The notes below the pieces were generated by a model. The model did not search any database and had not been told where the DNA came from. It saw nothing but the letters and a program-made list of their open reading frames with translations. A stretch of DNA of 64,000 bases, from positions 32,001 to 96,000 of IMG/VR virus record IMGVR_UViG_3300033073_000738; one strand, given 5' to 3'. Position 1 is the stretch's first letter, and each line of letters begins with the position of its first letter. Position numbers and translations under genes: made by a program. The stretch is from a virus (Duplodnaviria > Caudoviricetes). Below, piece by piece: positions 5,664 to 51,959 of this stretch.

Positions 5664-8600
5664 TTATCTATTCAGTGATTCAAATCCTTTCACCGCATCT
5701 ATTGGGTGGAACGTCTTACCTGTATATCCAGAGAATGAGTTCACAATCTCTGCCAGTAATTTGGAATCACCTTCATCTTTCAAACCACTCTGGTCAACGT
5801 CTTTCTGGTAGTACAATTGTTTCTGATAGTCAAAACCTGGTAGTACATCAAGTGTATGAGATATCATCAAATTACCCATCTTGATGTATGAATTAGCTTC
5901 ACTCAAAAGCATAGACGGGTTGGACCAAATACGTTTTAATTCTTGAATATTGAATCCAGGTAGGAACTGTTCAGTCTCAGATTTCACTTTCAACAAAACA
6001 TAAAGAGCACTCTGACTACCCCATGATTTCTTACGCAGCTTTTTGAAACGATCCGGGTCATCTGGGTCGTAACCAAGTGCAAGATGATAGAGCAGTATAA
6101 TTGATAACACAAATCCGGCATCTGCAAGAGACTTCTTAATAGCTCTCTTTTCGTGTTCAGAATAGTTGTTCCAGTTAGCCACTATATTCAGCTTCATCTT
6201 GGCAATGTCTTTTACAAATGTCCTAAAGAACGTCAGATAAAAGCCTTCTTCTACAGACATGGATTCGTAGTTAACACGACGAACCCCGAGACGATTCAAA
6301 CCAAGAGGTATGAAGTACTTTCTGAAGAAGAACATCATACGACCAATACTGGTCTTCTCAGCATATGTCTTGTCTATCTTTGCATAAGAACCGTTTATCT
6401 TCTTCTGCATGGCATGCAACTTAGCCACATAGTCGCTGAACTGCTGAGATCCAAATTCAAAAACATCTTTGAATTGGTCTTTTACAACAAGCTTACCCTG
6501 CTTGTCCAGCTCCATGACGTCTAACAAATTCGTGTCTAATGCGTCAAATTCTTTCAGAGCTTCCAGACGTTTGTTTGTAATCTCTTCTAAAGACATGTTT
6601 TCACGGTCCCCCAGTTTCTCATTGACAAAGGTTTCTTTATCAATCATCTTACCCTGATACACTTTGATGTTTTTAAGAAAAGAGATGAATGCACTAGACT
6701 GAATCTCCCACTCACCAAATATCTTACCTGAGAATATACCCAGCTGAAAAGGATTCTTGACCTTAGAGAAGTTAGTGTTATGACCATACTCATTCTCAAA
6801 CTCACCCTGTATAGGGTCGAACACTTCAAACACTTGACCCCAGAAAGAACGATTACCCAGTTTACCATAGTCTGCCATCATATCATTTACTACAGATCCA
6901 TGTTTATCGTCCCCTTTAAAGAGCATTGCTTTATCTCTTGTAAACTGTGACATGTTAAAATACTGTCCGCCGGCAGCTTCTACAATGTTTTGTATGTTAC
7001 CAGACATCCAGTTAACCGTCCAGTTAAAAGGTGCTATACCCAGGGTGGTATAACTGGTCAATGCCATAAGCTGTGACACGGTCTTTTGTGTATTAACGCC
7101 TAATACGTCAAACCCTTTAAAATACTCCTCGTTGTACATCACAGAGTTTATAAAGCTCCTGAGCACTTCAAGACGAGTGTTACCCCCTTCGTTGATCTTT
7201 TGTTTAAGTTCTGGCATATACTTCTTAAACACTTTGTTGATCACCATGTTGGACGCCTCACTCTTAGGTTGATTCTGGGTATCTGCCAATATTTCCTCGA
7301 GACCGTTAACGAATGCCAGCTCTTTCTCAAGCTCTTTCTTACGGTTTATAGAAGCGTTATAGTTGAGAAACCCTGACCACACGTTATAAGACGCGTTTTC
7401 AGCCTCACCACGGCGAGAAAATCTCACCGGTACAAACTTAGCTTGATTGTTATCTATGGTCGCCATAAGCTGTAAATCGCTTATAGAAGACTCTGAGGTA
7501 CCTGTCTGGTCAATATCCTGGTCTGTACGGCTGAATTTCCGCCTTATACCCTGTATAATAGACTCAGCTCGGCTATTTACCCCCTGTTTGATATTCTCAC
7601 CCTTGGTCTCAATAGTACGCTCAGTGAGGGTCTTTTCCATAAAGGGTACAGCTAACCCCAATCTCTGGGAAAGTTCGATGTCTTCCTGTGCAGCCAGGGT
7701 GCTTGTGCTGATATATAATAGATTTTCATAATCTACTTTCTCAGCAGCTGTAGCTGTCTTGTTCCTCATCTTGGTTTCCAGATCTACGAAATCTTTCAGC
7801 CTATAAGGATGGTCTACACCATATTGCTTTCTGTAAACATCGTTAGCTTTTGGCTTGAACCTATTGAGAACATCTCTATTCTCGTTGTTCATTAGTTGTA
7901 CCTCCTCCCCTTTCTCGTTGGTATAGCTTTCTTTCATTACCCGTTTACGATACTGTAACCCAGGTTTTCTATCCAGATATTTAGCGTTGGGTTCAAATCT
8001 CTTCCAGGCATATATGGGGCTTTCGCTTTTCTTTACATCTTCGTCATCCTCGTAGAGCTTGAAATACTCAATGTTATGATTCTCTAGGTACCAAGGTGTA
8101 TTGGTAAATTCCTCATACAAGGATGCATCTTCATTTAGCTCATCTACACTTATACCCCTGGCTTCTGCAAACAGCTCCATTTGGTGCTGCATCTCTTCGA
8201 TGTAATACTTACTCTCAGACATTGTACGCATTGTACCAAGTTCGGCGTTGATCTCTTTCAACCTGGCAACTTTCAATGCATAGTCAGGGTCTGATTCAGA
8301 TCTTAGAAGACGTCTCACCTCAGCTTCTTTATGTATACTTGCTATAAGGTATTTGTTATACGGATGACCCAGCTTTTTCTTCATGTTCTCTTTAGCCAGG
8401 GTTTCCTGCTCTTCAGGTGTGTAACCATTGATACTGATGTTGTCACTACTGTCCATGAGAGAAGTACGCTCTTCTTCAAGCTGCTTCATCTTTATCTTCT
8501 TTTCAGAAGACATCAATTGAGCTTTGACTATACCATCTCTGTCCTTATAAGGACGTGTAAGTAGATTCAATTCTCTGTTTACCTCGGCAAGCTTTACAGA

Positions 8601-11600
8601 TTCTGTATTTTGCAATATAGCAGCCTTCTCATCAAGAAGCTCTTGCATACGTTGAAAATACTCATCTTTGATAGAAACCACTGTGTTCAACTCAAGCCAT
8701 TTCTTATACTGCTTGCTATTCTCACCCAGTTCAAGTTTCTTCTTATCATCTATCTTACGGAACATCTCCTCATCAATATAGTCGTCATAAAGCTTCTTAG
8801 AGTTTTCTTCATACTTCTCCAAAGCTTCGGCAATCTTTAGAGCATCCCCGGTCTTCATCTTATTCTTACTGTCCCGTTTTTCTTTTAGAGAGTAATATCT
8901 CTCCCATACTGATTTGATATCCTCTAGGTCAGAAGGAGATATTTCACCAGAAGCCCAGGCTTCTTTAGAATATTGCACCTGTATTTTCCTCAGGTCATCA
9001 AAAATGGCCCCTGTTATCTCACGTATTGTCTTGGTCTCTCCCTGGAAACTAACTGTCTGCTCAAGAGGAGCTGTCAGTTTATAATACTCTTCTGTATACT
9101 GTGACTCAAAATACTTCAGCTCAAAATCCTTCTTGGCTTTCTTAGCTGCTTTGATCTTGTCTTTGTCTTTCTCAGTCTCAGCATCTACCAGATTCTTCTG
9201 CAGAACAGCATAGTCATAATAAAGACGCTCGTCAAACTCACTCTTGAAGAACATCTGCTGCATCTCTTTACCATTATATGGATTGAGTACAGTGGTTATA
9301 TACACCAAACTTTCGTTCATCTTCTTTTGGTCAAGACCTCTGCCATACACTTGAGCACGCTTATTAAACTCAACTGAAGTGTTATCCCTCAGTTCTTTAT
9401 TCATCAAACGAACTCTGTCCAGGGTGGCTTTTAACTTCTTTGCAGCACCTGCTAATATGATATCAGGGTTGGATATTGTAGCTACAAGTTTACCAAAGAA
9501 CCAACCCACATCACCCTTGTCACCTTTTAAGAAATCAGTTATAACTGCTTCACTGGGTAGGTCAGCCATTTCTTGACGCAGTTTCTCCTCGAGTTTTTTG
9601 TCACCCCTTTGTTTGACAGCGACAATCATCTCTTGATACTCCCCTTTAAGATTACCTATAAGGTCATCAGAAAAACTGGTCTGCAACATCTTAGCAATAG
9701 TGGGCTCAATACTTGCAACATAGTCTTTACGAATCGCCTGGATAACCCCTATCAGTTTAGTAAGATGACTTACCACCGGATTATTCTGGTCAGTTGTTTC
9801 CATGTATCCCAGTAGCTCTTCAAACATTGTCTGATAACCAATAAGAAAATCTCTCATCTTACTGAGCTCATTTAACCTTTGACTTGCTGACTTGGTATCT
9901 GTAGGAGTAGTATTACGAAGCTCCTCAAAAGCTTTACTTACAGACTCTATTACAGGCACTGATAGATCCAGAACAGATAGAAAGTTCTTCTGTATCATCT
10001 CCATCTTGGACGCATCGTCGTTTTCCAACATACTTTCGAGTGTGGTCTTCAAGATGTCCTCTTGTACTCTCAGACTATTGGTTCTTGTACGTTGGTCAGT
10101 AATGAGGTCAAGTATCTTTTGTGCGTCCTTGTTCTTGGTAACAAAGTTTCTGAGCTGCTCCAAACGAGCTGTAGATTTTGTAAAAGCTTTCATAAGCTTT
10201 TCTCTGCTCATCTTATTCAGAAACGCCAACCGCTCATCAGGAGTAAGCTCTACTGTTTCACTATTAGCATCTTTATCCAGGTCAAGATTGGGAAACAAAT
10301 GGTTACCCAAACGAGTATCAAACTTAGAAGGAGGCATTTTCTCTACAGCAAACTTGTCAATCATGTTGGTCTTCTCATCCAACATATAGGGTATACCAAT
10401 GATCGCTGTATCACCCACGTTAAACCCGGCTTCCATAAGAAGCTTCTTGTATAAGGTAAGCTGCTGACCCCATTTATCAACCAGTCGACGTTTCTTGTTC
10501 TTGAGTTCATTCAATACACCAGGTTCATTCTTTACCCCGTCTTTTGACAAGAGTCGTATAACACTATGGAACTCCTCCAAAATAGTGTCTTTGTTGTCAG
10601 CTCTCTTTCTTAGATACTTGTTCTTAAAGTCATATATCTCAAGACTACCGTCAGGACGAATACGAATGATGTCAATGATGCCACCCATTTTAGAGTTACC
10701 TACAGCCACCTCATTAAGAAGTATAGACCCGTCGCTACGTAGCTCTTTAAGTACATCAACAATACCGTCTTTACCGAATATCATCTTGTTCAATGTCTTA
10801 CGGTCCATCATATTAAAGACAGCACTCAATATCTTGTTCACCTCTTCACCCATATCGTTGAGGTCAATACCTTGGTCTTTGTTAATCTCTTCAATGATTC
10901 TATGCATCGCTGTACCAAAAAGAGTCTTTCTCTTGTTCTCAGATGCCATAAAGAGAAGGTCAACTATCCGGGTAGAATTGTTGGTCATCTTTAACAACTC
11001 TTCCTTTGTAATAGCCTGGTTACTTATCTTGTCTGTAATCAGATCTACCAATGCACGAGCCACCTTTTTGTTGTCACCTAAGTCACCGGTGCTAAGCATT
11101 GTCAAGTCATCAAAATAGAGATCTTCAAAGCTGTCAAGAATAGATTCAATAACAACCGGGTCTTCTAATTCAGAGGTGAAGTCAGAACCCAAGGAGGCTG
11201 TTACAGAACGCAACAAACTACCTTTAACTGTTTTGGTTGTCTTATTACCCTGGTTATCTGTGATAGTCATGTCAAACTCTTCATCAGATGATGCATCAGC
11301 TTTCACAAGCATGTGCTTGTCTTCATCAAATGCTATGCTCGAGTTGAACTGTAGTATCTTCTGAAGAGTCTCTTTCTGCTTTTCATTCATGTTCTGAGCC
11401 TCATAAAAAGCTTTATCTTCATCAGACATCTGATTGTATATCTCATTACTGTTCAGGTTAAGATTGAGGTTGTCAATCTGCTCACTCATGAACATCTCTT
11501 TGAGAATCTCAATAGGGTCACGTTGTATCTTCTTACCCTTGATCCATTCTAATATCTTCTTTACAAGCTTTGTAATGAAGTTATCTTCCGTCTCACGACC

Positions 11601-12377
11601 CCTGGCAGCAATTTCTTTTGCCAGAGCTTCTTTCTTTATCTTGTCAAACCGGATGTTCCCCTTACTGTCTTTGTAGTTGGGGTTGTTCTTATATTGCTCA
11701 AAGGCTTTCTTATACGTATCAGTGCTTCTTATCTTGTCTAAAGCCTCCATAAGAGCTTCATCGTTCTGAGGCATCATATCAAGAAAGAAGTGTAAAGCTT
11801 CTTCTGGTAGAGCTGTATCTTCCAGACCACTTTGTACCATCACCATTCTTTTTGCAAAGTCTGCTATGGCATTGACACCATACTCTTTGATAACGTTGTC
11901 CTGACTAACTACAGAAACCCCTACTCTTTGTAAGAATCGTTTTGCGTAATCAGTCATTGTTAATGAGTCATTGTTATAGTTGAATACCATTCTGTTCCAG
12001 TTGTCCATCACCTTGTCATCAACTGTTACATAGTCTTGCATGTATTCTAATACAGGATAAGTCTCAGAGAATGCAGACAATTGTTGAGCTATATCCGGTG
12101 TGTCTTTTACCTTGTACCAGGTTTTACCCTTATCACGAATAGGTTCAGGATTAATCAGATCTCTTTCAGCAAGTGTTGCTACAACAGTGTCAGCTGAAAG
12201 CTTAGGAAGAGAATCCAAAGACTTCAGTACACCATTATACTTAAGAAGCTCATTTGCTTTGTTAACTGATGGGACAACTCCATTGTTTCTGAAAAAAGCC
12301 AACATTGCTTTATCTTCACCAATCTCACCAACTAACGATTTCCATTCACTTGATTTCTTGTTAGGACAGATTAACAT
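5664..12377 (-). CDS. Giant virion-ejected protein (2237 aa) with a PD-(D/E)xK nuclease-like domain and degenerate zincin-like motif
   Basis: M.xCPN...WK.L N-terminus typical of crAss RNAP-neighbour proteins; PEEALH; GTAMH...E...IDII...IYDFK...QQLTLY; C-terminal hydrophobic helix; position directly downstream of the RNAP. Confidence 0.85.
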   Translation of the reverse strand: MLICPNKKSSEWKSLVGEIGEDKAMLAFFRNNGVVPSVNKANELLKYNGVLKSLDSLPKLSADTVVATLAERDLINPEPIRDKGKTWYKVKDTPDIAQQLSAFSETYPVLEYMQDYVTVDDKVMDNWNRMVFNYNNDSLTMTDYAKRFLQRVGVSVVSQDNVIKEYGVNAIADFAKRMVMVQSGLEDTALPEEALHFFLDMMPQNDEALMEALDKIRSTDTYKKAFEQYKNNPNYKDSKGNIRFDKIKKEALAKEIAARGRETEDNFITKLVKKILEWIKGKKIQRDPIEILKEMFMSEQIDNLNLNLNSNEIYNQMSDEDKAFYEAQNMNEKQKETLQKILQFNSSIAFDEDKHMLVKADASSDEEFDMTITDNQGNKTTKTVKGSLLRSVTASLGSDFTSELEDPVVIESILDSFEDLYFDDLTMLSTGDLGDNKKVARALVDLITDKISNQAITKEELLKMTNNSTRIVDLLFMASENKRKTLFGTAMHRIIEEINKDQGIDLNDMGEEVNKILSAVFNMMDRKTLNKMIFGKDGIVDVLKELRSDGSILLNEVAVGNSKMGGIIDIIRIRPDGSLEIYDFKNKYLRKRADNKDTILEEFHSVIRLLSKDGVKNEPGVLNELKNKKRRLVDKWGQQLTLYKKLLMEAGFNVGDTAIIGIPYMLDEKTNMIDKFAVEKMPPSKFDTRLGNHLFPNLDLDKDANSETVELTPDERLAFLNKMSREKLMKAFTKSTARLEQLRNFVTKNKDAQKILDLITDQRTRTNSLRVQEDILKTTLESMLENDDASKMEMIQKNFLSVLDLSVPVIESVSKAFEELRNTTPTDTKSASQRLNELSKMRDFLIGYQTMFEELLGYMETTDQNNPVVSHLTKLIGVIQAIRKDYVASIEPTIAKMLQTSFSDDLIGNLKGEYQEMIVAVKQRGDKKLEEKLRQEMADLPSEAVITDFLKGDKGDVGWFFGKLVATISNPDIILAGAAKKLKATLDRVRLMNKELRDNTSVEFNKRAQVYGRGLDQKKMNESLVYITTVLNPYNGKEMQQMFFKSEFDERLYYDYAVLQKNLVDAETEKDKDKIKAAKKAKKDFELKYFESQYTEEYYKLTAPLEQTVSFQGETKTIREITGAIFDDLRKIQVQYSKEAWASGEISPSDLEDIKSVWERYYSLKEKRDSKNKMKTGDALKIAEALEKYEENSKKLYDDYIDEEMFRKIDDKKKLELGENSKQYKKWLELNTVVSIKDEYFQRMQELLDEKAAILQNTESVKLAEVNRELNLLTRPYKDRDGIVKAQLMSSEKKIKMKQLEEERTSLMDSSDNISINGYTPEEQETLAKENMKKKLGHPYNKYLIASIHKEAEVRRLLRSESDPDYALKVARLKEINAELGTMRTMSESKYYIEEMQHQMELFAEARGISVDELNEDASLYEEFTNTPWYLENHNIEYFKLYEDDEDVKKSESPIYAWKRFEPNAKYLDRKPGLQYRKRVMKESYTNEKGEEVQLMNNENRDVLNRFKPKANDVYRKQYGVDHPYRLKDFVDLETKMRNKTATAAEKVDYENLLYISTSTLAAQEDIELSQRLGLAVPFMEKTLTERTIETKGENIKQGVNSRAESIIQGIRRKFSRTDQDIDQTGTSESSISDLQLMATIDNNQAKFVPVRFSRRGEAENASYNVWSGFLNYNASINRKKELEKELAFVNGLEEILADTQNQPKSEASNMVINKVFKKYMPELKQKINEGGNTRLEVLRSFINSVMYNEEYFKGFDVLGVNTQKTVSQLMALTSYTTLGIAPFNWTVNWMSGNIQNIVEAAGGQYFNMSQFTRDKAMLFKGDDKHGSVVNDMMADYGKLGNRSFWGQVFEVFDPIQGEFENEYGHNTNFSKVKNPFQLGIFSGKIFGEWEIQSSAFISFLKNIKVYQGKMIDKETFVNEKLGDRENMSLEEITNKRLEALKEFDALDTNLLDVMELDKQGKLVVKDQFKDVFEFGSQQFSDYVAKLHAMQKKINGSYAKIDKTYAEKTSIGRMMFFFRKYFIPLGLNRLGVRRVNYESMSVEEGFYLTFFRTFVKDIAKMKLNIVANWNNYSEHEKRAIKKSLADAGFVLSIILLYHLALGYDPDDPDRFKKLRKKSWGSQSALYVLLKVKSETEQFLPGFNIQELKRIWSNPSMLLSEANSYIKMGNLMISHTLDVLPGFDYQKQLYYQKDVDQSGLKDEGDSKLLAEIVNSFSGYTGKTFHPIDAVKGFESLNR

Positions 12378-12385
12378 GTTCAGTA

Positions 12386-15300
12386 TTATTTAATTTTACC
12401 AAGACAACTCATACGATTAAAAAACTCTTCAGCTGATTCATTCTCAAGCTGCTCCTTCTTATAAAGGTCCGCTATCTGTTCTGCAGACATGCTGAAACTC
12501 AATGTTGAATCCACCATCAATTTGGTGAAAGCTCCCACAACATCAGTTGTAGTGGCTCTATCAGCACTTGCTGTTGCTTTACCAAAGTTGTTAAAGATGT
12601 TTCTACTTTTAGCTGCAGCATCTGCCAAGTCATTCATCATATTTCCACTATGACCCTTGACCCATTTTATAGATACAGAACCACCGCTGGCTTCGATCTT
12701 CTTTATAAGATTCTCAGCAGCATTTACAAGAGTTATGATGTAAGCTTCCTTTGCTTTCCAAGGCTTAGGTTCTCTTTGCTGACTTCCTTCACTGTAGTTC
12801 CATAACCCGTTATAGTTTACAGCCCCTTTGTAATCCTGGTTGATTACAATGTGTTCACCCCCTACATTTGCAAAATGGGTAAGTACAGACACCAGGGCCA
12901 TCATTTCCATGGTAGGATTACTAAACTTAGCATCTGGGTGCAGCTCTTTCAATCGTTGCACCTCTTTACTTTCTTCTGTACCAGATAGATCATAAACTTG
13001 ACCATTTGCTTTGAATACAGCACCAAACCCAATCTTACCGGTACCCTTGATGTCAGACCCATCTGAGTAAACTTGCAATGGATTCTCTTTAGTGGAAAGT
13101 TTAGTTGGTGTAACAGATTTATCTGAAGACTCATATTGTTTATAAATAACTAACTCTCTACCAGCATCTTTCTTAGACTCTTCAATCCATCCAATTAATG
13201 CAGTGTAACCATTAGCAATCATGGCTTTTGTAACAGCATCATTACTTTCTTTTATCGAAGAGAATACCTTATTCTCAAGAGCTGCTCGTTTAATTAACAT
13301 AAACTTACTTTGTCCTTCTTCTGTTGTAGCATCTAATGTTGTTGCAGGCTCATAAGATACTTCTACCGTTGTCACTTTACCAGAACTTCCTATTTCTTGA
13401 AATGGTCTATCTAACGCATAATAAGTACCACCACCTCTTTGTGCATAATTAACCTTAGAAGAAAATGTATCCGATGTTCTAAAGGCTTTAACTGTAACAG
13501 TTGCTTGCTGTTTAATAGTAGTTGTAGCAGGTTTGACAACATCAGATTTACTCCATCTTGAATAACCATCAAGTCTTTCTTCTGTGTAACCCTTTAGCTT
13601 AAGATAGGATGCAATAAGTTGATCAGAAAGATTACCCTTAGCGTATTGATTACCCACTCTAAACGATGCACCGGCTGCAATAGCTTTTTCCAAAAGTGAT
13701 TTGTATTTACTACTAAGAGTTTCTTTGATCTGAGCTTCTGTAACACCTCTAAACAACCCACTACCAGATACCATCACTACATCAGATGCGGTATAGTTTC
13801 CAGTATTTGCTTTACTACCCCAGGCTTGACGATATTTATCTGTAGAACTAATGGAAGCATTACCAGACTTATATCCTATAAACTGAGTAGATTCCTGAGC
13901 CATCTGAATGTCTTTACCTGCATTACCATACATATCAGTAGGTTTGACACCTGCCTGTAGTAGCGGGTTTTCTTTAACAGTATCTTGTTGTTGAGATGAC
14001 ATCAACCCAGCTTTTTGTAAAGCTTCTTTTATAGCCGGCATGTTAGATCTAGTGGCATCAGTTCTTACTGTGGCTTGTCTACCAAGACTAACATCCTCAG
14101 AAGGCAATACAAGTTTGATATTATCTGTAGCAGAAATAGTTTTAATCAGAATAGGTAGTATCTCCTTTACAGACCCTTCACCATGACCAAGACCAGCTAG
14201 TGGCAGAAGTATTGTCTTGTCTTTATTCTCTCTTGCATATACAATGATCTTACGCAGACCGCTTTTCATCAACTCAACATTGTTACCTGTCACTGATTCA
14301 GAATAAGCCCCTTTACCAGGTTTTCTGGTAGAAGGTTCATTACCCTTAACTGGTAGTTGTATCACATTGTCTTTGATCTTGAATTCACCGTCTCCACGTG
14401 TAATCAACCCTTTAGATGCAGCAGCTTGTGCTAACCCAGCACCATGTACACCTTCTAGGTTTGTAGTGATTACAGGAATACCTTGCATTTGGAATATATC
14501 TCCCTCTACAACTTTCTCAGATTGATTTTGAATTACCTCAAACTCAATAGCTGCAGCACCAGGTAAGAATTTATCAATCACATTAACATCTTCTGCTCTC
14601 CAGCCTTCTTTGTGCCAAGTACCTTTCCACCCAGGTGAACCTTTGGGATGTATAGCAGTGACACGTGCATACACTTCTTTCTCTACTTTATAATCAGAAG
14701 TTGTACTAATGTGCCTTACAATATCTCCCACTTTTACATTATATTTATCCATCTCTGTATTTGACCTTGTTGTACGAGTACGGAAACCATGTATTATCAT
14801 ATCAATACTTGTAGGATTGGGCCCCAATGCATCAATAACTTTTTGATTAGCCGTAACTAAACTACCGAAACTCATAACCCCACTTACCTTGTTCTGTGGA
14901 ATATCAGCAACACTTGCTATAGATTTCTGAGCAACTGGTGTAGGCAATAACCCTTTCTCTTGTTTAGATGCCCACTCTAAAGGTATACTAGAGTACCACT
15001 TACCTTTTGTTGCTATTTCACGAGTGAGGGTTTGTTTAGAACCTTTACCAAAAAACGTGGGATTATTACTGCCAAATTTAGAATAAAAATCTCTATAGAC
15101 TGTTTCTTTATACAATCTTTTCTGTTCAGAATCTTTTCTTTCATCTACACTTTTCTGAAACTCATCTACAGCATACCCATACAGCTTATTTATAAGACCG
15201 ACAGGTACAGCTGAAATGTAGCTGTATCTGTTTGAGTTCAATCCGCTCTGGAAAATAGAATACAAAACAAGATCCCTGAAGAACTTTCTTACTTGTATAT

Positions 15301-18300
15301 TGTCTTCATCTGATTGTTCAAGGTTTGCCAGGTTTTCTAATTGAGCAATCACACTCTCTTTCTCTATGGTATTACTGCTGTTCTCAAGAAATCGCCAAGT
15401 GATTACACGAGAGTTTCCTTCACCTCTTTCAAAAAACAGGTTTCTAACAATTGGATATTGTTCTTCAAGAGATGAATACCAGTCTTTTTTCTTGATGGCA
15501 TTCCAATCATCCACCATCTTATTAGACTGAATCAATTCTAACAAATACTCATCAAGTGATTTGTCAGTCTGCCAGTTTTCTTTGAAATACTGTTTCCCTT
15601 CTTCACTACGATCTATGAAGTTTTGCAATACATAATTGACAAAGTCATTCTTAGCTGTGCGAGCAAACTTCAAAAGGTCATCGTTTGTTTTCAGTTTTCT
15701 ATCTTCTGCAAAACCCATCATCAGATAACCACCTTCCTTAAGCAAAAAGTTATTTAACTGAATGTCATTTCTAACAGGGAACAGAGTATTGAGACCTAAT
15801 AGTATCTCTTTTGCTACATTCAAAGGCGTAATTATACTATTAGTAGCAATGTTCTTGACAGTTTCACGAGTCAATACAGACGAAGGTTCGTTAAGATCTA
15901 TAGCTTTTTTATACAATTCTCCTCTTGCAAATACATCAAAACCGGAAGCATAGGGATTGGTATCCCATTTCAAAGCTGTTTGAATGTTAGTTAAAGAATC
16001 TGTGTTATCCTTCAACCCAAGCATCTCTATCAAATATATAAGTTGCTCAAGCTTCATGCTTTCAGAAAGAGTGAATAAGTCTGTACCATCTGGCATCACT
16101 GTTTCTTTCAACTTTTCCTTGCTGAACAACTCATCAGTATTTAGAACATACTCACCTTTAAGTCTATTAATCTTATCGTTAATTACACTTCTTATGGTCT
16201 TTCTGCTTACGCTTTTTGCAACTGCATCTCTTTTTATGACACCCATTTCTTTCATAAGTTCTGCAAGAGCCATTCTCCTAGCTGATACTTTGCTATCTTT
16301 TGCACTATCCAAGAACTTGTTATCATACAAGCTGATCAGTTTGGTATACCTTCTGATGATGGGCTGATTCACAAAGTTCAGTATCTTATCACTTGATATC
16401 CCCATATACTTCATGAAAAACATCAAAGGAGAAAGCTCTGTCACCACATTCACTGCAAACACATAGTCATCTTTAGCCACGTCAACAAACGCATTGATAA
16501 ACTCACTGAAGAACTCACTTTTAAGATTACCATCTTCATCATAAATGCTTGACAAAGACACCTCTTCTATTTTACCCCCTACGGTCTTTTTTATAAACTT
16601 GTTTGAAAACAATGTATTAACCTGTTTGGGGTTCAACTTAGCATCAGAATACTGGAACAATACGTTGAATGTATTAGCAAGAGCTGCAATACCCAGGTCG
16701 TTCTTACCTGTTAATAGACTCAGGAACTTCTTAATGTTCTTTTCTCTATCTAATATCTCTGAGTGTTTGTAGTCAGTCTTTTGTCTTTTAGTACCGTACA
16801 GCTTGTAATAGATTTCGTCTACTATAGGCATTATCTCGTAGTTGGTACTGGGGGTGATAAGCTCAATATAGTTAGCCGGGTGCAGTATCACCTCGCTCAT
16901 TGTATTGATCAGCCTGTTTTGTACAACACTTTTGATGTTGTTGTACTTACTTAAATCAGTGAGGTCACTCTTTTTATAGGGCATATCCATTACTTCCCCA
17001 TCGTAACTTAAAGATGGGTAGAGTATGAACATCTTGTCAATGTCAAAGTCAGAACCGGATTTGATAACAACCTCAGAAGGCATTACAATAGCATCACCAA
17101 ACTGAGCTGGTAGAAACTCTGCTATTTCCATTACGTCCTGGAAGTTCTTACCCTGTGTAGGAATACGATATGCCACCATTTGAACACTCTTTCTATTCTT
17201 GTTCATCCATTCTTCGTCTTTGAGCATCTCGTTCATCCTATGAATAGACTCTATCTTCTTACCATCTTTATGTTTCATCTGTAAAAGAGGTAGCCAGTTT
17301 CTTGTCATACCCACCTTCACCTGCATAGGAGTAACTACTTGCTTTCCATTCACTTCTTTTAGGTCGTAATACTTAAGCTCTGTATTACCAAATGTCTCAA
17401 GAGCACGATCACTGAGTTTTTTAGAATAGTTTATACGCTCCATACCTGTAGTGGCTACTTGTATGAGCATTGTTCCATTTGCCTTATATCTTACCAGGTT
17501 GTTGTTTATAGCAGATATGATGATGCCCTCTATCACCTGAGCTTGCACTGTAGCATCCAGGGGTACAGTGAACTTACCTGTTGCTGCATCATAGTTAAGG
17601 GCCTTGATAACGTTGCTGTCTTGGTTCTTCTTTTTGACTTCTGACAGAAAGTAGTCAACCATCTTCTTGAGGTCGTCCACTTTCAGTTTACCTTCTTCTT
17701 GGCTGAAACGAATCCCAAGCTTATTAAATAGAGTTGCTTTCTCTATTTCTACAAGCTCATCTATGTACCTTTTGTAATCTTGATACAGACCTTTGAAATC
17801 TGGATGTTCCAGATTCATCATGATCAGCTTCCTGATCTGTGAACCAAATACAGAAGTGTCGTGAATCTCTGAGTCTATTGTTACCTGCTCTTTCAAATGG
17901 TTGAAGAACAAAGTGTTTGCACTTTTGAAATCCAAACTCTTGATTAGTTCTTTTCTTTCTTTATCGGTGAGCCCATTGATCTCATTTCTCTCCATACTAA
18001 GAAAAGGAGTAATAGTACGTTCACCGGGATTATTACCATCAAAGCTTTTGTAATAATCATCCATGTCTTTAGGCGTCTCTACCTTGCTACCGCTTTCAAA
18101 CTTTACATACCCATATCCACCAAACTCCATTCTCTTAGCTAGATGCTCATCTGCTGTTCCTTTAATCAATGTAGGAATCAAAGGTTGTATAGAGAACTTA
18201 TCAAATACCGGCACCAGGGTCGTATAACTACCGTTATCTACTGTTCTATTATACTCCATAGGGCCAGCATACTGGAACTTCTTAGGAGGAAAATACACCT

Positions 18301-21286
18301 CAGCTAATGGATCATATCCAACCGCGTCACGTTTCTTTATAAGTTCGCTACGTAACTTGGGGTCTTTTTCTGCGTCAGCAAGTTCATCATAGTGGGCAAA
18401 GTCAACGATCTTCTTATATGTCTCCTCCTGTTCATTCGACCATTGACCAGTAAGAATGGATATATTACGATAGAAGTCAAATGTACATTTACCCTGACCA
18501 TCAGCTTCTGTACCCTTGTATTCATTCTCGATTACAGCTTTAATCTTCTCGTCATAAAGCTTGATCATTTCAGGGCTGAGCAAACCTTTTTCTTTCTTTA
18601 GCTTCTCAATGTTTGCTATAATCTTATCCTTATAAGATGATACAAAGTTGACATCTTTTAACACAGCACTTCTAAATCCAAAATCTACAGACTGACGAGC
18701 TAATGCCTCAGTGTATTCGTTTTTGTTCAAATAACCTTTCTTATACAAACGTTCTATCAAATTCCTACCGGATAGATTTGTGTTTGCACCATACCCTACA
18801 GAGTTTGAGTAGTTATTGAAATCCTCTATCAGGTTCTTATCAAGGGAGGCAAAAATACCTGTAGCTGAATCTTTGGGAGATCGTTTATGAAAGTCTTTGA
18901 AATAGATGGAGTCACCAAAGAATACTTTCATCTGGTCAATATCCATTAAGAAAGTATTAGCCAGGTAGTCATGTATAACGTTGGTCCATGGGTCTTTACC
19001 CATTTGCAGCTCGTCTTTACCAAAATTGAATACTTTAAATCTCTTATTGCTCCACAGTTTCTCAGCAGGTTTCAATCTTTCATAGAACCTCTGAGCATAG
19101 TTGTTCATGTAATCTGTAATCTCATTCTTTACATTGTTATGCAGCTCACTGTTTGGAACCAATGCTACTTCATCAACACTCTTTGCTTTACTTAATATTG
19201 CATCCAGTTTGTCCCTGATATCAGAATCTTTGATGATGTCTTCAAACAAACCCCAGGTATTCAAACTATTTACAGAAGCTCTAGTGAGGTCTTTGAAAAA
19301 CCCTTTCTTAGCCAGGTAACGCATTTGCATAGTGTCCTGAAGATGATCCACCACCTTAGATAGAAATACTTCATTACTAAATATTTTAGCAGTGCTGTTC
19401 TTAAAAAAAGACACTATAGGTCTCTTCTGAGGTAGCTCAAGATTCTTATCAAAATAGTAATCCATCTTTACACCCAGGTCAGTAGACTTATCTCCCAGAC
19501 GTAATACCGAGTTATAGCCCTGCATACGAAATGAGTTGATGTCCTGGAGGAGTTTATCAATGTCATTCAGATCTGTACTACTTGCACCATCTGTATCTTC
19601 CCCTTCTTTCTTAAGCTGTAGACCACCTGTATTGCTTATCTCAAGACGATTGTATTCTCCTTCGGTAGCAGACCATTCTAGTATATTAGTGTCTACATTC
19701 TTCTTTATACGACGACGCTTGCCGTAGTTTTTACTACTGGGGTCAAAAAAGAAAAGAGAATTCATGAACATACTGTTACGTATGGATGGGTTTCTCTCTG
19801 GGTCTAAGAAAGCAAGCGATGGTTCATTCTTTAATATATCTTCTAGAGTGGGATACTTCTCAAAATCATTAAGAGCATTGTTGATAACAGTGAAGTTATT
19901 GTGCAACTGTAACGCGTGCATCCTGTTTCCCTCTGAGGTGATGACGTTACGGTCCATGTTATAACTCTTGTTGTATTTCAACTCCAATGCTATAAGATCT
20001 TTGATAAGGTTGTTTTGACCGTCGCTAATCTTCTTTGATACCCATTTACCTTTTTCTTGAGTTCTGGTATAAAGATCCTGGGTAACAGCTTTAAGGGGGT
20101 TTGTTATAAACTTATCATCTTGTATATTCCTTACAACTGCAAGAAAATGATTGTATATATACTGAAAAGCAGTTGTATAACCCTGACCTTTAGGTCCTAG
20201 AGCTCTACTCGACATCAGATGCTTTTCTGTCTGTGGAGAAAACTCAAATCCCAGACCTTTTAAAAATGACAATTGAGTTGCTTTTAAAGACGGCCCATCT
20301 ATATTCTTGAATATATCTTCCAGTCTTTCTATAGCATTCTTATTAATCTCCCATGCACCATTGTTATTGTCAGCAAGATTCACCTCAGTACCATCTGGTA
20401 GAGTGATGGGCATACCCACCCTATTGAAGTTAGCTTCAATCTTCATTTGATAACCAGAGGTCTTACCGGTAGCTGCCATGAAGTTCTTCAACAACCCATT
20501 GTCTTCTAAGCTCATTTGATATATAGGCATAAAAGCCTTGGCAAATGAGTTCCTGAAATTGATTCTGAACTGCGTCTCTTCTTTTGTATGGTCTTTCTTG
20601 TGTTTCAGCTTGTCTATAATCTTGCTGTACTGAGGTATGTCATTTACATACTTTTCCATCTTAGTAATGATCTGGTCAAGACTTGTAGAGTTCTCTACAT
20701 GAGTCATCAGATTCCTTACAAAGTTGGAATAGTTTACAGAAGATGTAAATCCATATTCATCAAACACCTCGTCATCTTGTAGGCTCCTGATGAAAATCTC
20801 AACAGATTTGTCTACATCATCCAATGGATCTATCTCATTAGCTGACACATCAAAGACCATTCTTTGTATGGCTTTATCGTCATCACCTATTTGAGTGAGG
20901 TCTACCAACCCGTCTTCGCCGGTCACCAATTTATTACGAAGCTCAAATACCGTAGAGAACTTAATGAAGTTAGCTTGAACACTTTTCCATGAAGCTTGTA
21001 TCTCAAGAAGATTTGTGACAATCTTCTTAAACTCTTCTGCATTCTCAGTGTCACCAGATGCTTCAAGACTTGCAACTTTAGCTGCATAGCTTTGAATGTA
21101 CTGAGGCAACACTTTGTCTCTTACTGAATTCAATAAGTTTTCAATAACACTCTTCTTATTCTTTCCTACAAGGTCAAATACAGAAACGCCTTCTTGTTCC
21201 ATAGCACGAAACATGAAGTATTCCAATTTGGAAACAACCTTGACCATTTTGTCTTTCGTAATCTCAAGTGAACAGTTAGCAGACAT
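12386..21286 (-). CDS. Virion RNA polymerase (double-psi beta-barrel, phi14:2 gp66-like) with C-terminal multidomain extension ending in RNase HI
   Basis: SGSDFDIDK (DFDID at 17036-17050), YRIPTQG and ADGQG motifs. ATG at 21286 preferred over TTG at 21295. Confidence 0.93.
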   Translation of the reverse strand: MSANCSLEITKDKMVKVVSKLEYFMFRAMEQEGVSVFDLVGKNKKSVIENLLNSVRDKVLPQYIQSYAAKVASLEASGDTENAEEFKKIVTNLLEIQASWKSVQANFIKFSTVFELRNKLVTGEDGLVDLTQIGDDDKAIQRMVFDVSANEIDPLDDVDKSVEIFIRSLQDDEVFDEYGFTSSVNYSNFVRNLMTHVENSTSLDQIITKMEKYVNDIPQYSKIIDKLKHKKDHTKEETQFRINFRNSFAKAFMPIYQMSLEDNGLLKNFMAATGKTSGYQMKIEANFNRVGMPITLPDGTEVNLADNNNGAWEINKNAIERLEDIFKNIDGPSLKATQLSFLKGLGFEFSPQTEKHLMSSRALGPKGQGYTTAFQYIYNHFLAVVRNIQDDKFITNPLKAVTQDLYTRTQEKGKWVSKKISDGQNNLIKDLIALELKYNKSYNMDRNVITSEGNRMHALQLHNNFTVINNALNDFEKYPTLEDILKNEPSLAFLDPERNPSIRNSMFMNSLFFFDPSSKNYGKRRRIKKNVDTNILEWSATEGEYNRLEISNTGGLQLKKEGEDTDGASSTDLNDIDKLLQDINSFRMQGYNSVLRLGDKSTDLGVKMDYYFDKNLELPQKRPIVSFFKNSTAKIFSNEVFLSKVVDHLQDTMQMRYLAKKGFFKDLTRASVNSLNTWGLFEDIIKDSDIRDKLDAILSKAKSVDEVALVPNSELHNNVKNEITDYMNNYAQRFYERLKPAEKLWSNKRFKVFNFGKDELQMGKDPWTNVIHDYLANTFLMDIDQMKVFFGDSIYFKDFHKRSPKDSATGIFASLDKNLIEDFNNYSNSVGYGANTNLSGRNLIERLYKKGYLNKNEYTEALARQSVDFGFRSAVLKDVNFVSSYKDKIIANIEKLKKEKGLLSPEMIKLYDEKIKAVIENEYKGTEADGQGKCTFDFYRNISILTGQWSNEQEETYKKIVDFAHYDELADAEKDPKLRSELIKKRDAVGYDPLAEVYFPPKKFQYAGPMEYNRTVDNGSYTTLVPVFDKFSIQPLIPTLIKGTADEHLAKRMEFGGYGYVKFESGSKVETPKDMDDYYKSFDGNNPGERTITPFLSMERNEINGLTDKERKELIKSLDFKSANTLFFNHLKEQVTIDSEIHDTSVFGSQIRKLIMMNLEHPDFKGLYQDYKRYIDELVEIEKATLFNKLGIRFSQEEGKLKVDDLKKMVDYFLSEVKKKNQDSNVIKALNYDAATGKFTVPLDATVQAQVIEGIIISAINNNLVRYKANGTMLIQVATTGMERINYSKKLSDRALETFGNTELKYYDLKEVNGKQVVTPMQVKVGMTRNWLPLLQMKHKDGKKIESIHRMNEMLKDEEWMNKNRKSVQMVAYRIPTQGKNFQDVMEIAEFLPAQFGDAIVMPSEVVIKSGSDFDIDKMFILYPSLSYDGEVMDMPYKKSDLTDLSKYNNIKSVVQNRLINTMSEVILHPANYIELITPSTNYEIMPIVDEIYYKLYGTKRQKTDYKHSEILDREKNIKKFLSLLTGKNDLGIAALANTFNVLFQYSDAKLNPKQVNTLFSNKFIKKTVGGKIEEVSLSSIYDEDGNLKSEFFSEFINAFVDVAKDDYVFAVNVVTELSPLMFFMKYMGISSDKILNFVNQPIIRRYTKLISLYDNKFLDSAKDSKVSARRMALAELMKEMGVIKRDAVAKSVSRKTIRSVINDKINRLKGEYVLNTDELFSKEKLKETVMPDGTDLFTLSESMKLEQLIYLIEMLGLKDNTDSLTNIQTALKWDTNPYASGFDVFARGELYKKAIDLNEPSSVLTRETVKNIATNSIITPLNVAKEILLGLNTLFPVRNDIQLNNFLLKEGGYLMMGFAEDRKLKTNDDLLKFARTAKNDFVNYVLQNFIDRSEEGKQYFKENWQTDKSLDEYLLELIQSNKMVDDWNAIKKKDWYSSLEEQYPIVRNLFFERGEGNSRVITWRFLENSSNTIEKESVIAQLENLANLEQSDEDNIQVRKFFRDLVLYSIFQSGLNSNRYSYISAVPVGLINKLYGYAVDEFQKSVDERKDSEQKRLYKETVYRDFYSKFGSNNPTFFGKGSKQTLTREIATKGKWYSSIPLEWASKQEKGLLPTPVAQKSIASVADIPQNKVSGVMSFGSLVTANQKVIDALGPNPTSIDMIIHGFRTRTTRSNTEMDKYNVKVGDIVRHISTTSDYKVEKEVYARVTAIHPKGSPGWKGTWHKEGWRAEDVNVIDKFLPGAAAIEFEVIQNQSEKVVEGDIFQMQGIPVITTNLEGVHGAGLAQAAASKGLITRGDGEFKIKDNVIQLPVKGNEPSTRKPGKGAYSESVTGNNVELMKSGLRKIIVYARENKDKTILLPLAGLGHGEGSVKEILPILIKTISATDNIKLVLPSEDVSLGRQATVRTDATRSNMPAIKEALQKAGLMSSQQQDTVKENPLLQAGVKPTDMYGNAGKDIQMAQESTQFIGYKSGNASISSTDKYRQAWGSKANTGNYTASDVVMVSGSGLFRGVTEAQIKETLSSKYKSLLEKAIAAGASFRVGNQYAKGNLSDQLIASYLKLKGYTEERLDGYSRWSKSDVVKPATTTIKQQATVTVKAFRTSDTFSSKVNYAQRGGGTYYALDRPFQEIGSSGKVTTVEVSYEPATTLDATTEEGQSKFMLIKRAALENKVFSSIKESNDAVTKAMIANGYTALIGWIEESKKDAGRELVIYKQYESSDKSVTPTKLSTKENPLQVYSDGSDIKGTGKIGFGAVFKANGQVYDLSGTEESKEVQRLKELHPDAKFSNPTMEMMALVSVLTHFANVGGEHIVINQDYKGAVNYNGLWNYSEGSQQREPKPWKAKEAYIITLVNAAENLIKKIEASGGSVSIKWVKGHSGNMMNDLADAAAKSRNIFNNFGKATASADRATTTDVVGAFTKLMVDSTLSFSMSAEQIADLYKKEQLENESAEEFFNRMSCLGKIK

Positions 21287-21288
21287 TA

Positions 21289-24200
21289 TTAACAAACTTT
21301 AGTATAAATAGTATTTAGTTTCGGAGCAAAGAACTTCTTCTTCTTAGGAGGATTGGGTATGTTAATAGGTGCAGCATTTTTGCTGTCCTTACTCACCTCA
21401 TCTGTCTTATTCTTGATTGAGTTGGGGTCATCTACAACCTCTTGCTCTGTAATTGGAGCAGGTGCTTTGTAGTTTAGATCTTTGGGTGAAACAAACTCAA
21501 CAATAGAATTGTAACGCTTCAGGTTATTTACATCAGGTATATCCTGGAATGTAACCTTTAGACCAACTTCGTTAATCAAAAAGTCCTTGAAGTTCTTCTG
21601 TACAAATGTAACTTTTTTAACACCATCCTGCTGGTCTAATACCGGAAACATAAACGGCACAACACCGTTGAACCATTGTGAATAGATATTTATAGGCAAC
21701 CTACCAATGTAGTTCATAACCTTCTTGAGATTGTTCTCATCCACAATAACCTTTTTAGAATTCTTGTCCAGTGTGAATATATTATACGTAACACGTTCCT
21801 TGTTTTCTATAATGGTTACATCCTGTAGATTATTACTAATCCTGAGGTTATATTTGTCGCCGGTCAACCAGATGTTCTGTACAAACATTCTTAGGTTGTT
21901 ATATATACCACTTTCTGCAGGTATCTTCTTCTCCAGGTTTCTTTCTAAGAATGTTCTAATAATAGCAAATGTATAGGGAACAAAAGCAATCTCTTGGTCA
22001 TTAAGTTCTACCCTAGCATTTCTTGAAAAAGGAGGAAGCAAACCACGTCTGTTGATAGCTCCACTGGCATCTTTAATCAAGGCATTTAGTTCACCTGACT
22101 CTTTGTTTATTACAATGTCCACATGATCTTGACTAAGTTGTCTCCTAAGCTCAGGGCTTGTCAAAGTATTTGGTGAAGATGTTGCATTAAGTAATGACAC
22201 ATCTTTAAGATTCATTACACCTGCTGTAATCCTATTCAGTCTAGCAATCTTTGTACGACCATCTTTCACCTCACTGACCATCTTGTCATAAGCCTCTTTT
22301 GCATTAGGGTCAAGCTTATTCTCAACTACGGCATTGCTGAACTCGTTCAACATGTTGAAATAGACAATCTGATTCTCTCCACTTTCTCTCAAACCTTTGC
22401 TGTCTTGAAGATTGTTCTTGTCGATCACACCCACTTGTTCACCCTCTTTATTGAATATGATGGGGTTGCCGTCTTTATCAGATATATAACCAATGACGTC
22501 GCTGCTATACTCCAGGTCGTACATTGTTGAATCACTACCATCCCAACGCAACATTGAATTGTTCTTGGTGATAGTGACCCTGTAATCTTTTAAAGACTCC
22601 ACAGGCTTAATATGAAGCTTGTTGATTATATCTCTCACCTTGTGATAGTAGCTTGTAAAGTAGTTACTCTCCACCGGCTCACCTGTCTCAACATCATAAT
22701 ACAAATCATTAGACGTGCTTCTAAATGGATTCTCATTCTGAGCTGACTTGTCAGAAGCTAATGGTGTTCTCAACACAAGCATGTAATCAAGAGGCTTCAT
22801 AGAACCAGAAGCAACCTCGTCTTTGAATGTAGAAGAAGCTTTTACAACTGGTATACCTGATTCTTTCTCTTCTTCACTAGGCACTTTGAACTCAAACTCT
22901 ATCTTCTTCTGTAGTTCTTTAGATATGGGAATTCCAAAATAGTCTTTTAGAGCTGCGTTTATCTTTTGTTCAGTGGCTTCAAGTTTAGACTTGTCAAATA
23001 AACCACCTCTATCTACCCATTGTAGGAAGTCCATCACCTCATTGTTAGTATCATATATGAGTTCTTTGAGATTATTACTTCCCTTGGTTACACTCAACGC
23101 ACCCACTTTAATCAGCTTACGGATCTGCTTTACATCACCAATAGCAGAATATACCTCACCATAGTTCTCAACAGCAACAGCAGGATAACGTGTTCTCAGC
23201 TCACCAAACACTCGACTGAAACCCATTTTAGATAGTTTCTTAGCAGCCGTATATTCTTTCTCAAAACTATTGAACTCATCCACACTTCTAAATCCAAGTG
23301 AGGGAAGTTTGAAATCTGGTGTTACCTGGAATGCATTCTCTTCCAAACTGTACATACTAGGGAACATACTGTACCCTTCCATTACATCACTCATGTTGCC
23401 GCTTGCATATGTTCCATTCTCATCTAACGGACCCATGAGTTCACGGATGTACTCAGCTACAGTATCTTCTATAAGAGGAATGTATCCATTCTTTTCAGCA
23501 AGCTTTGTCAATACAGCTTCAACCCTTGCTTGTGACCTAACACGACGAGGATTGTTGCGTCCCAGGGTGTAGATCTCAAACTTAGACATCCCTGTAGCAT
23601 CAGTTACATAATAATATGTACGACCTTCCACCTCAACACTAAAAGCATGTTTGAGTTTGTTCTTATATTCCTCTATACGGAAGCGTCGCTTGTTAGCTGT
23701 TATAGCACTTGATAATGTATCATACTCAGATTCAGATATAGCATCTTTTGAGTATAGCTTTTTGAATTGCTTTCTTAGTTGGTCAAGGTCTGTAAGAGAT
23801 TTTGCTAAACCAATCTTCTCCAGCATTTCACCGGATGACGTGTTTAGTATCTCAGAGGTGAGATTCAACACTTCACTCAGTGCAGTTTCATCTGTCATTA
23901 CACCAAGTTTCTCCAAGAGTTTCTTGATGAAATCCATGAACACCTGCCAGGTAGTCTTCTTAGAGTTAGCATAAGGTATCTTAGCTAACAGATATTGAAA
24001 CGCGGGGTTGGTAAAAGCTTCTGTTACAAACTCCCTAAGTTGCTCGTCAGGTGATAAGTCACTATTAAAAGCATAAAAATGACCGGCCAGTTCAGAATTC
24101 TTTACAGCATTGTATACAGATCTGAGTGCCCTGGTGTATTCACTTTTAGGATCAGCAATAGCTGTCTCTATCTGCTTATGGATTAACTCATGCAGAATGA

Positions 24201-33500: not shown

Positions 33501-33603
33501 TGTTTTGCTTTAAACGTAGTATATCCCCTATCGCTTCTATAGGTGGTGTGTATAGCTCGGTAGGAACGAAAGCTTCTTTAGCTGATACAAGATAACTTGG
33601 CAT
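30535..33603 (-). CDS. Virion cargo/ejection protein (1022 aa)
   Basis: N-terminal LKQNRYDQ...VDLSLPQN pattern, helical, no Cys seen; synteny before the three giant genes. Confidence 0.7.
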   Translation of the reverse strand: MPSYLVSAKEAFVPTELYTPPIEAIGDILRLKQNRYDQAWSQANSMYRGILDAPLLSSHGEAKRQQFLKQADQAIQHLSTVDLSLPQNQQMANDVFKPFWEDGRLVKEIGLVKKTQSEIAFGEQMRTSTDEKVRAQYNPFSIQDLNNLNSDIKNSTPEELDKLNVRNYVKKVDIAKEMDQMIKDLGITNAQVRESPNGGGYKLVDMYGKESVLPLTDFFTSSLSTDARAYLQMMGRLQGHSSFEIALEQTNGDKAAARQMVADDIIRQRKESLEKGVIPEYSSAIGDAESKIRTIVAQREATGAGLSADDEEIIKQYTEAIAGYKTKLKESSDLLAGLKDKNSEVYQKHSDLYSTSEGYNEAYTSTIVGQYASSWAKSRANFLNSHKSEADAAWKGIQDVMTARMGIQARMEVADMNNDTKMEIADLKARTAARKAAIAKGEAVDDTPLYMGRGPQSNMKMTKAEEWKNMYQKVDEIAGDAAIRVFETTLNNKINLPFVNKLYEGVKAGMGDKAFFSKNDQSPEYKIFKDAIDKGQLKLEPGRTYNWTYKEVLDFIKKNTVDYMATEEHKADVQAMGGMTEDIKNLIAMGDIYRGLQADAKKVDEKILAQDKYKGYTVNENGHLRIGTADELVGEITIPMRNQDGQMENVKVSDILLNRRSINTESDNGVYVLGSGTTGRTYTSTININGKIYNHLSSSPNLMTSLKDGKVNEVSQMINQPMLQKLEELRADYNKDFERLAPSLQFSTPDFQRKNDMFNYGVVRYTARNEKSLSEPAEVAMAQLFSDDNFNNRYNSFYGVSQADLKEDSSFMKVVRSVASNLPNMSSKKDGFSLDVYAYDTEAGRPVYKPVIDKKTIAESLGLSLDKLNEDVDMNAAVDKFMKTFKVAAPPGMQPGDIFTGLSPIATLVRDAPYSSPDYLDNLKMGKFSIKHLPAGGGFQVSSYVYTLDPKTKEFVKTPTTITNHDESTDVDELLRVMYGSLYHVSEMNQQTRKANVQANPEAMTSIVRMKEQLKKQGININ

Positions 33604-33619
33604 ATTTCACAAGGGGGAT

Positions 33620-33635
33620 TACATTAATAATATAC
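33620..33635 (-). promoter_or_regulatory. Candidate phage late promoter, GTATATTATTAATGTA (copy 1)
   Basis: Exact 16-bp match to 48001-48016; intergenic, 16 nt upstream of the ATG at 33603. Confidence 0.7.
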
Positions 33636-33637
33636 TT

Positions 33638-33685
33638 AAAAAATCCTAAAGGTTTACCCTGCCATGGATAAACCTTTGAGGTTTA
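33638..33685 (-). terminator. Hairpin(s) with T-tract after the 1093-aa gene (terminator or operator)
   Basis: aaaggttta/taaaccttt inverted repeat (33648-33677) plus an overlapping palindrome taaacct-ttg-aggttta (33669-33685). Confidence 0.55.
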
Positions 33686-50827: not shown

Positions 50828-50837
50828 TTATAATGTA

Positions 50838-51296
50838 TTAACAGTTTGCAACTGAAGTAACAATACCTGCAGAGCTCACTTGATATACTTTAGTACCGTC
50901 TGAATAGAATCCTCCGGTAGTATAAGCTGTGGTCAAAGCTGAATCAGAATACACCTGTGTATTCACAGCCAATGTAGGAACAGCTGCATAGAATGTATAG
51001 ATTCTGTTTGTGTTGGCACAAGCAGCAGCTGAGCTAGAAGGGTCCCTTGAAACATTAAATGTAGCAGGAACAATAACAGCAAATGTAGTTATTGCTCCAT
51101 ATTGACCGTTTCCACAATCACCCTGGATTGTACCCTCATATGAAACACCTGCCCCAAGATTGTCTATTTGAAAAACATTTGTAGTGGGGTTAGGTACCCT
51201 TTGAGTATACGTTGCTGTACCTACTTGTCGGTACTTGACAATGTATCCATTTGTAGGGTTGTTGTTGGAGCTAAAACTAACTGTAATTGTAGCCAT
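50838..51296 (-). CDS. Fibronectin type III-like virion protein
   Basis: GYIVKYRQVG...IDNLGAGVSYEGTIQGDC Fn3 signature. Confidence 0.7.
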   Translation of the reverse strand: MATITVSFSSNNNPTNGYIVKYRQVGTATYTQRVPNPTTNVFQIDNLGAGVSYEGTIQGDCGNGQYGAITTFAVIVPATFNVSRDPSSSAAACANTNRIYTFYAAVPTLAVNTQVYSDSALTTAYTTGGFYSDGTKVYQVSSAGIVTSVANC

Positions 51297-51308
51297 TGGT
51301 TATTATAT

Positions 51309-51938: not shown

Positions 51939-51959
51939 TTTAATAAAGTATAATAGAGT

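Follow-up and report, generated by a model that had tools for sequence, protein, structure and literature searches.

A gene identified by homology as the virion RNA polymerase (vRNAP) of a freshwater crAss-like phage was found to encode five modules between its polymerase core and a cysteine-bearing C-terminal tail, and the product is probably a packaged polyvalent effector. The gene lies within the 64,000-nucleotide stretch of viral DNA analysed here (the window; Table 1), which is part of a single 121,014-bp contig. The vRNAP would act as a polymerase-based polyvalent effector, whose modules would be in the cell ahead of all phage gene expression. CrAss-like phages belong to the most abundant viruses known, and their survival of the first minutes in the host is little understood. 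If the injected polymerase is a carrier of interchangeable enzymes, its arrays form a catalogue of candidate early effectors and counter-defence activities, comprising, here and in relatives, a predicted ADP-ribose writer and eraser, RNase H, ASCH, AlkB-like, NADAR and helicase domains.

Table 1. Positions of the vRNAP gene, its parts and its two large neighbours in the window.
Feature	Position	Strand	Basis
Whole vRNAP gene, 2966 aa plus stop	12386..21286	minus	ORF calls; identical public gene call P0003
crAss-type two-barrel vRNAP core, about residues 1-2100	14996..21286	minus	homology to phi14:2 gp66
DFDID catalytic metal-binding motif	17036..17050	minus	invariant D1416-F-D-I-D1420 in near-clade alignment of 14
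Cys5 of the polymerase (MSANC)	21272..21274	minus	invariant in near clade
Module A, ASCH (PUA-like) fold	14528..14941	minus	motif R2172-x-x-T2175-x-R2177
Module B, macrodomain fold	13982..14518	minus	loops N2279-x6-AGLA and PLAGLGHGEG
Module C, predicted small Rossmann-/flavodoxin-like alpha/beta domain, no family match	13544..13969	minus	borders from relatives
Module D, ART-like fold (weakly assigned), undescribed family	13139..13501	minus	R2606, Y2625, E2714 invariant
Module E, RNase HI	12581..13108 (Pfam RNase_H stretch 12605-13078)	minus	PF00075, PHROG 531
C-terminal tail, ends ...EEFFNRMSCLGKIK	12389..12580	minus	conserved at extreme C-terminus of near clade
Upstream giant cargo ORF, 3078 aa, counterpart of phi14:2 gp67	21289..30525	minus	position
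Downstream giant cargo ORF, 2237 aa, in phi14:2 gp65 position	5664..12377	minus	position

The assignment of the gene rests on homology of its core to phi14:2 gp66. In a phmmer search, vRNAP residues 1134-1431 aligned collinearly with chain residues 1111-1390 of PDB 6VR4 (phi14:2 gp66; E 5.9e-19), and tblastn with the vRNAP retrieved 101 crAss-like phage records. Sequencing runs containing this sequence carry the labels riverine, lake, freshwater or aquatic metagenome. The two polymerases have in common the two-barrel core, the DFDID motif and a position between two giant cargo genes; they differ in that gp66, about 22% identical over the matched core stretch, is 2180 aa long and lacks all five modules. 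The present protein is thus about 790 aa longer, in line with the statement of an earlier sequence-only reading of this DNA that the phi14:2 enzyme is much the shorter. Three giant ORFs of 3078, 2966 and 2237 aa stand head to tail, in the g067-g066-g065 order of phi14:2 and downstream of further large minus-strand ORFs, a run taken as the structural module by size and position. Residues 2086-2117 of the 3078-aa ORF gave a weak SprT-like (zincin) match (E 0.066), which may represent the zincin-type protease that has been described in crAss-like phages for cargo proteins associated with the RNAP; the literature places the zincin-type domain of phi14:2 in the downstream protein gp65.

The vRNAP ORF runs through 2966 codons without an internal stop, from an ATG at 21284-21286, directly after the stop of the upstream giant ORF, to its own stop codon at 12386-12388. 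The claim that a single ORF continues for some 800 aa past the core therefore stands, and the public gene call is the identical 2966-aa protein. In an alignment of the 13-14 nearest relatives (the near clade), conservation extends to G2098-K2099-W2100, is followed by a variable stretch and returns in the last 45 or so residues. Because near-clade conservation stops at these residues, the core is taken to end near window position 15000 (14996), where the sequence-only reading had also put it. The extension that follows, array and tail together, comprises 869 aa.

With a genome drawn from a metagenome, such a fusion could be an artefact of assembly or gene calling, through contig chimerism or the read-through of separate genes. 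A public contig is identical over 12300-15400, although this sole contig to cover the whole stretch may be the window's own source. Contigs from a second run of the same study tile the array stretch, however, and 99% identical pieces from an independent riverine study bridge the D/C and A/core junctions, so that public contigs agree with the assembly on the point of misassembly raised earlier; no joints or loose ends were seen in the public contigs over the array. Contigs from a lake-water run, 90-95% identical, cover 12300-13625 only, and the missing cover beyond is no sign of a different array. The absence of any stop in 2966 codons, a kind of architecture shared by more than 100 relatives from many samples and a near-clade tail that comes only after the array also count against an artefact, which is very improbable indeed.

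The borders of the modules were taken from BLAST and HMM matches to relatives, independently of the sequence-only reading, whose borders (A 14530-14915, B 14000-14515, C 13545-13970, D 13135-13500 and E 12600-13080) agree with them within a few codons. The linkers between modules are short and rich in Thr, Gln, Pro and Ser. Catalytic or signature residues of the modules are conserved across 17-73 relatives. Only the RNase H module was visible to Pfam and PHROGs: Module E matched PF00075 (E 3.1e-12; 47.3 bits against a cut-off of 25.8) and PHROG 531 (E 2.4e-16), and its DEDD(H) residues D2745, E2797, D2821, H2882 and D2892 are conserved in 51 relatives, which bears out its earlier naming as RNase HI. 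For modules A-D, nothing was returned by Pfam at E values up to 10, apart from one match of Module B to DUF7831, or by phmmer and profile searches of PDB sequences, and no match to C or D was found in the ESM Atlas. Structures were predicted from two checked alignments that included flanks, A6 (modules A and B) and A5 (modules C and D), with mean pLDDT of 81.9 and 82.1, respectively; in A5 about one third of the columns of each row are unrelated flank residues, which may have lowered model confidence. The ASCH and macrodomain assignments of the sequence-only reading held at the fold level.

Module A has the PUA-like beta-barrel fold of ASCH domains. ASCH proteins are ac4C amidohydrolases and RNA binders, and the 103-aa E. 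coli YqfB, with the catalytic set K21, T24, R26 and E74, carries K21-x-x-T24-x-R26. The Module A motif, conserved at 93% or more, is similar, with Arg at the position of the catalytic Lys21; the counterpart of the Glu was not placed. Module A differs from YqfB in being part of a 2966-aa protein and in its added N-terminal IPQN-x-VSG segment, which cellular ASCH proteins, YqfB included, lack. This segment (IPQN-[KL]-[VI]-SG, window 14870-14941) precedes the ASCH barrel in 73 of 73 Module A relatives.

Module B has the three-layer alpha/beta/alpha fold of a macrodomain, although Pfam gave no match to Macro and a profile search of PDB sequences for a solved macrodomain came back empty. Identity to the macrodomains of DarG, TARG1 and alphavirus nsP3 is 12-20%, and the catalytic residues of the MacroD/TARG1 type are not matched. 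As read from the sequence, an Ala occupies the position of the MacroD-type catalytic Asp; the module, whose conserved loops are Gly-rich, may therefore only bind ADP-ribose. Its sole Pfam match, to DUF7831 (E 0.051), was rejected as an identification, the DUF7831 stretches of two relatives (P0061 and P0066) lying elsewhere than their B-like match.

Modules C and D are two conserved families without assigned function. Module C is, in the predicted model, a small three-layer alpha/beta domain with only generic structural matches, and the sequence-only reading had likewise left it unassigned. It is 60-81% identical in many vRNAPs. A divergent paralogue (27-39% identical) adjoins an A or B module, mostly directly upstream of A, in nine proteins (P0007, P0045, P0055, P0057, P0074, P0135, P0178, P0207 and P0228), so that family C has at least two subtypes.

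The catalytic triad of ADP-ribosyltransferases (ARTs) sits on strands 1, 2 and 5 as H/R, Y/S and E. Module D has R2606 invariant in strand 1 (AFRTS), Y2625 in strand 2 (G-x-G-x-Y2625-Y-A-L-D) and E2714 in the last strand (G-R-E2714-L-V-I-Y), and in the predicted model the three residues fall on strands 160-167, 184-187 and 268-277. These strand motifs resemble the GxGxYFA and NEYIVY motifs of PARPs. The ART-like label survives at the fold level, weakly, as the least secure of the four named folds. Membership in ART-PolyVal (PF18760) was rejected, given no Pfam match and an hhalign probability of 0.5% against the ART-PolyVal domains of nine relatives.

Searches with the extension yielded 244 relatives, of which 110 hold the vRNAP core in the same polypeptide. 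Fourteen of the 110 form the near clade, with cores 42-52% identical (about 45%) to the present one; in the remaining 96 the core is about 24.5% identical, compared with medians of 51-63% for the shared module. A recent horizontal origin of the modules was considered and rejected, as third codon positions are only 43-60% identical even at 80% protein identity. Since third codon positions are near saturation, the high module identity is ascribed to purifying selection, and the modules are, judged from these comparisons, far more constrained than the fast-evolving core.

Domain content at this site differed among the 14 nearest vRNAPs. Between conserved core and conserved tail, near-clade arrays comprised A+C, C, C+ART-PolyVal, A+B, C+A or A, with a 2OG-Fe(II) oxygenase in some and further unannotated stretches. 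The same modules recur singly or in pairs in the 96 distant vRNAPs. Most of the 244 relatives share a single one of the five modules, only two others carry three or four, and none has all five. Order also varies (A then D in P0124, B then D in P0202, C then A in P0138), and other domains found in relatives include ART-PolyVal, NADAR, 2OG-Fe(II) oxygenase, cpYpsA, GNAT and helicase. Differing arrays between a conserved core and a conserved tail argue for a cassette site, and from this layout the modules are autonomous units inserted between the core and the Cys-bearing tail; they look like swappable first-minute tools against the host. A cassette-loading site at the C-terminus had been proposed, and the loading of variable cassettes was upheld while its location was not, as they lie ahead of the tail and not at the C-terminus itself. 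The side of the core also differs in other clades: 109 of the 119 module placements are C-terminal of the core, but 10 are N-terminal. Free-standing genes for the modules were not found among the 244 relatives, the short matches being fragments of giant ORFs on short contigs; one (P0163) is the C-terminal part of an ORF that is truncated at the border of its 1.6-kb contig, and others start inside a module. In two distant vRNAPs (P0017 and P0066), ART-PolyVal, RNase H and then NADAR or DUF7831 stand N-terminal of the core, and an ART-type module beside RNase H, as in D-E here, seems to be a recurring pair.

We infer that the whole polypeptide is packaged in the capsid and is ejected either before the DNA or together with it, because the homologues are packaged vRNAPs and the 869-residue extension holds one cysteine. 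Proteomics has identified vRNAP homologues as virion proteins in phi14:2 (Drobysheva et al.) and crAss001 (PMC10172136). The single cysteine of the extension is in the tail, as the short Cys-containing tail of the sequence-only reading had it, and the 244 relatives contain 0.09% Cys overall compared with about 1-5% in most other ORFs of the window. Ejected N4-like vRNAPs and ejection proteins are reported to show a suppressed cysteine content, which has been connected with periplasmic passage (PMC11445570). The extension might instead be cut off before or during packaging, for example by a zincin-type protease, and then act late or not be delivered at all. Flexible linkers do separate the modules, and Drobysheva et al. 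regard it as possible that gp66 is activated proteolytically and that fused polyproteins are cleaved. However, the residues of the extension are Cys-free all the way to the tail, and the conserved tail with its invariant cysteine follows the array and not the core; a late cytoplasmic fragment needs neither low cysteine nor such a tail, which argues against cleavage. The N4 vRNAP, counted as a polyvalent protein, is also packaged unprocessed (PMC5512222). Cleavage is accordingly judged quite improbable.

For a vRNAP delivered whole, a role can be suggested for each named fold. The ART-like module would put ADP-ribose on a host target, as T4 Alt does, and the macrodomain would strip ADP-ribose marks, such as those placed on phage nucleic acid by DarT-type host defence transferases. 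RNase HI would resolve RNA:DNA hybrids from early transcription or host defences, and the ASCH module would bind or deacylate RNA. Counter-defence, which the sequence-only reading had proposed along with transcription support, is a candidate role for the modules. The modules might, alternatively, serve the polymerase itself, as a delivered transcription-support unit and not as counter-defence: RNase HI would clear R-loops behind the polymerase transcribing injected DNA, ASCH would handle nascent RNA and the ART/macro pair would regulate the polymerase or the host RNAP by reversible ADP-ribosylation. The physical joining of modules to the polymerase in at least 110 proteins is consistent with this, as are the adjacent ART-type and RNase H modules here (D then E) and in P0066, and the packaged ART T4 Alt retargets host RNAP (PMC5512222). 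Arrays vary freely even among close relatives, though, which suits accessory, conflict-type functions more than a support machine of fixed make-up; phi14:2 gp66 functions with none of these modules, and in relatives they are supplemented by NADAR, AlkB-like and helicase domains, as are typical of polyvalent effectors. Transcription support as the main purpose is considered unlikely, and the polyvalent effector is preferred.

By the definition of Iyer et al. (2017; PMC5512222), a polyvalent protein of a phage or conjugative element joins two to fifteen unrelated domains, with several enzymes among them, in a single polypeptide, and is associated with genes for packaging or transfer. Here five modules and a polymerase occupy one ORF near large ORFs taken as the structural module. 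A giant, probably packaged polypeptide, unrelated enzymatic domains with a predicted action upon delivery, and frequent ARTs are shared with these proteins, and it is established, as the sequence-only reading had stated, that phage polyvalent proteins collect such domains (PMC5512222; PMC9503650). The scaffold differs, being a crAss-type two-barrel RNAP and not the N4 single-subunit RNAP, MuF or relaxase; the N4 virion RNAP with its MPTase domain is included among polyvalent proteins (PMC5512222), and that paper makes no mention of crAss, ASCH or RNase H. Packaged ART, macro and NADAR proteins are already known (PMC5512222; PMC9503650), and in a 2022 survey phage macro, NADAR and SLOG domains typically stood alone (PMC9503650). 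The head-packaged, injected ADP-ribosyltransferase Alt of phage T4 follows a common logic, with a pre-made ART delivered together with DNA (PMC5512222). Comparison with a pre-ejectosome protein of cyanophage A4 (PDB 9k3a chain B, residues 1418-1594) gave 12% identity at a low Z, which demonstrates no homology. Giant crAss vRNAPs and their fusions with neighbouring cargo proteins are also known (Drobysheva et al.). The crAss-type polymerase as a scaffold for variable module arrays was not found described in the literature searched. Such arrays offer a natural test bed for which proteins pass a podovirus tail.

The more novel side result, of which no mention was found in the literature searched, is a rule for the terminal cysteines of the three cargo proteins, which have cysteines almost exclusively at the termini facing the neighbouring cargo protein; most of the 244 relatives share this pattern. 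In the 3078-aa protein the sole Cys comes last (codon 21292-21294, minus strand), and in the 2237-aa protein the sole Cys is at residue 4 (codon 12366-12368, minus strand), no column other than C4 being invariant in that N-terminus. Cysteines of the polymerase are Cys5, Cys934 and Cys2961, the tail Cys codon lying at 12404-12406 (minus strand) and C2964 being invariant in the near-clade alignment. The same layout was observed in phi14:2, with only C1797 (the last residue) in gp67, C3 and C2179 of 2180 in gp66, so that cysteines again stand near both ends only, and only C3 in gp65. It recurs in crAss001, with only C2339 of 2341 in gp47, which is encoded on the other strand, C5, C1334 and C2404 of 2412 in gp50, and only C5 in gp49. 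All 14 near-clade polymerases have a Cys at residue 3-6 and another within the last six residues, both columns being invariant. More widely, 214 of the 244 relatives have a Cys in their last 12 residues, compared with about 1% expected by chance, and the next ORF starts M-x(1-3)-C in 10 of 10 related loci where it is visible. Many proteins of 3.5-4.6 thousand residues contain exactly two cysteines, one per end. Fusions of the upstream protein with the polymerase have no N-terminal Cys, six of ten have no Cys near the junction, and all keep the C-terminal Cys.

The simplest reading of this pattern is an end-to-end tether, probably a disulfide; crAss001 virions contain structural disulfides according to the literature. 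The tail cysteine would probably tether the polymerase to the next cargo protein. We propose tentatively, as a reading that falls somewhat short of probable, that the three cargo proteins travel as one disulfide-linked thread, with the Cys tail as the coupling to the next injected protein. The C-terminus of the upstream protein would then be joined to the N-terminus of the polymerase, and the C-terminus of the polymerase to the N-terminus of the downstream protein. A coupling at the tail would account for the insertion of cassettes ahead of the tail rather than behind it. The polymerase would serve as a cargo rail, and any Cys-free module spliced between core and coupling would be pulled into the host. 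A complex prediction for the polymerase tail and the downstream protein's N-terminus gave a score of 0.15, which weighs neither for nor against the coupling. How the ejected cargo is ordered and linked becomes testable through the conserved tail and the terminal cysteines.

Some further cysteines and cysteine-free proteins were also observed. Cys934 (window 18494-18496, minus strand, in GQGKCTFDF) is a third, internal cysteine of the polymerase; an internal Cys is present at about residues 920-1018 in 11 of the 14 near relatives and at residue 1334 in crAss001 gp50, and phi14:2 gp66 has none. Upstream of the cargo block, two large minus-strand ORFs of 1022 and 1093 aa (30535-36964) are without any Cys and may encode ejected proteins too. 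In contrast, several small minus-strand ORFs at 49505-53428 are Cys-rich (2.0-4.9%), one of them starting MACNPCNDCPPS, and in two ORFs of this region (50838-51296 and 51309-51938, minus strand) the last residue is Cys.
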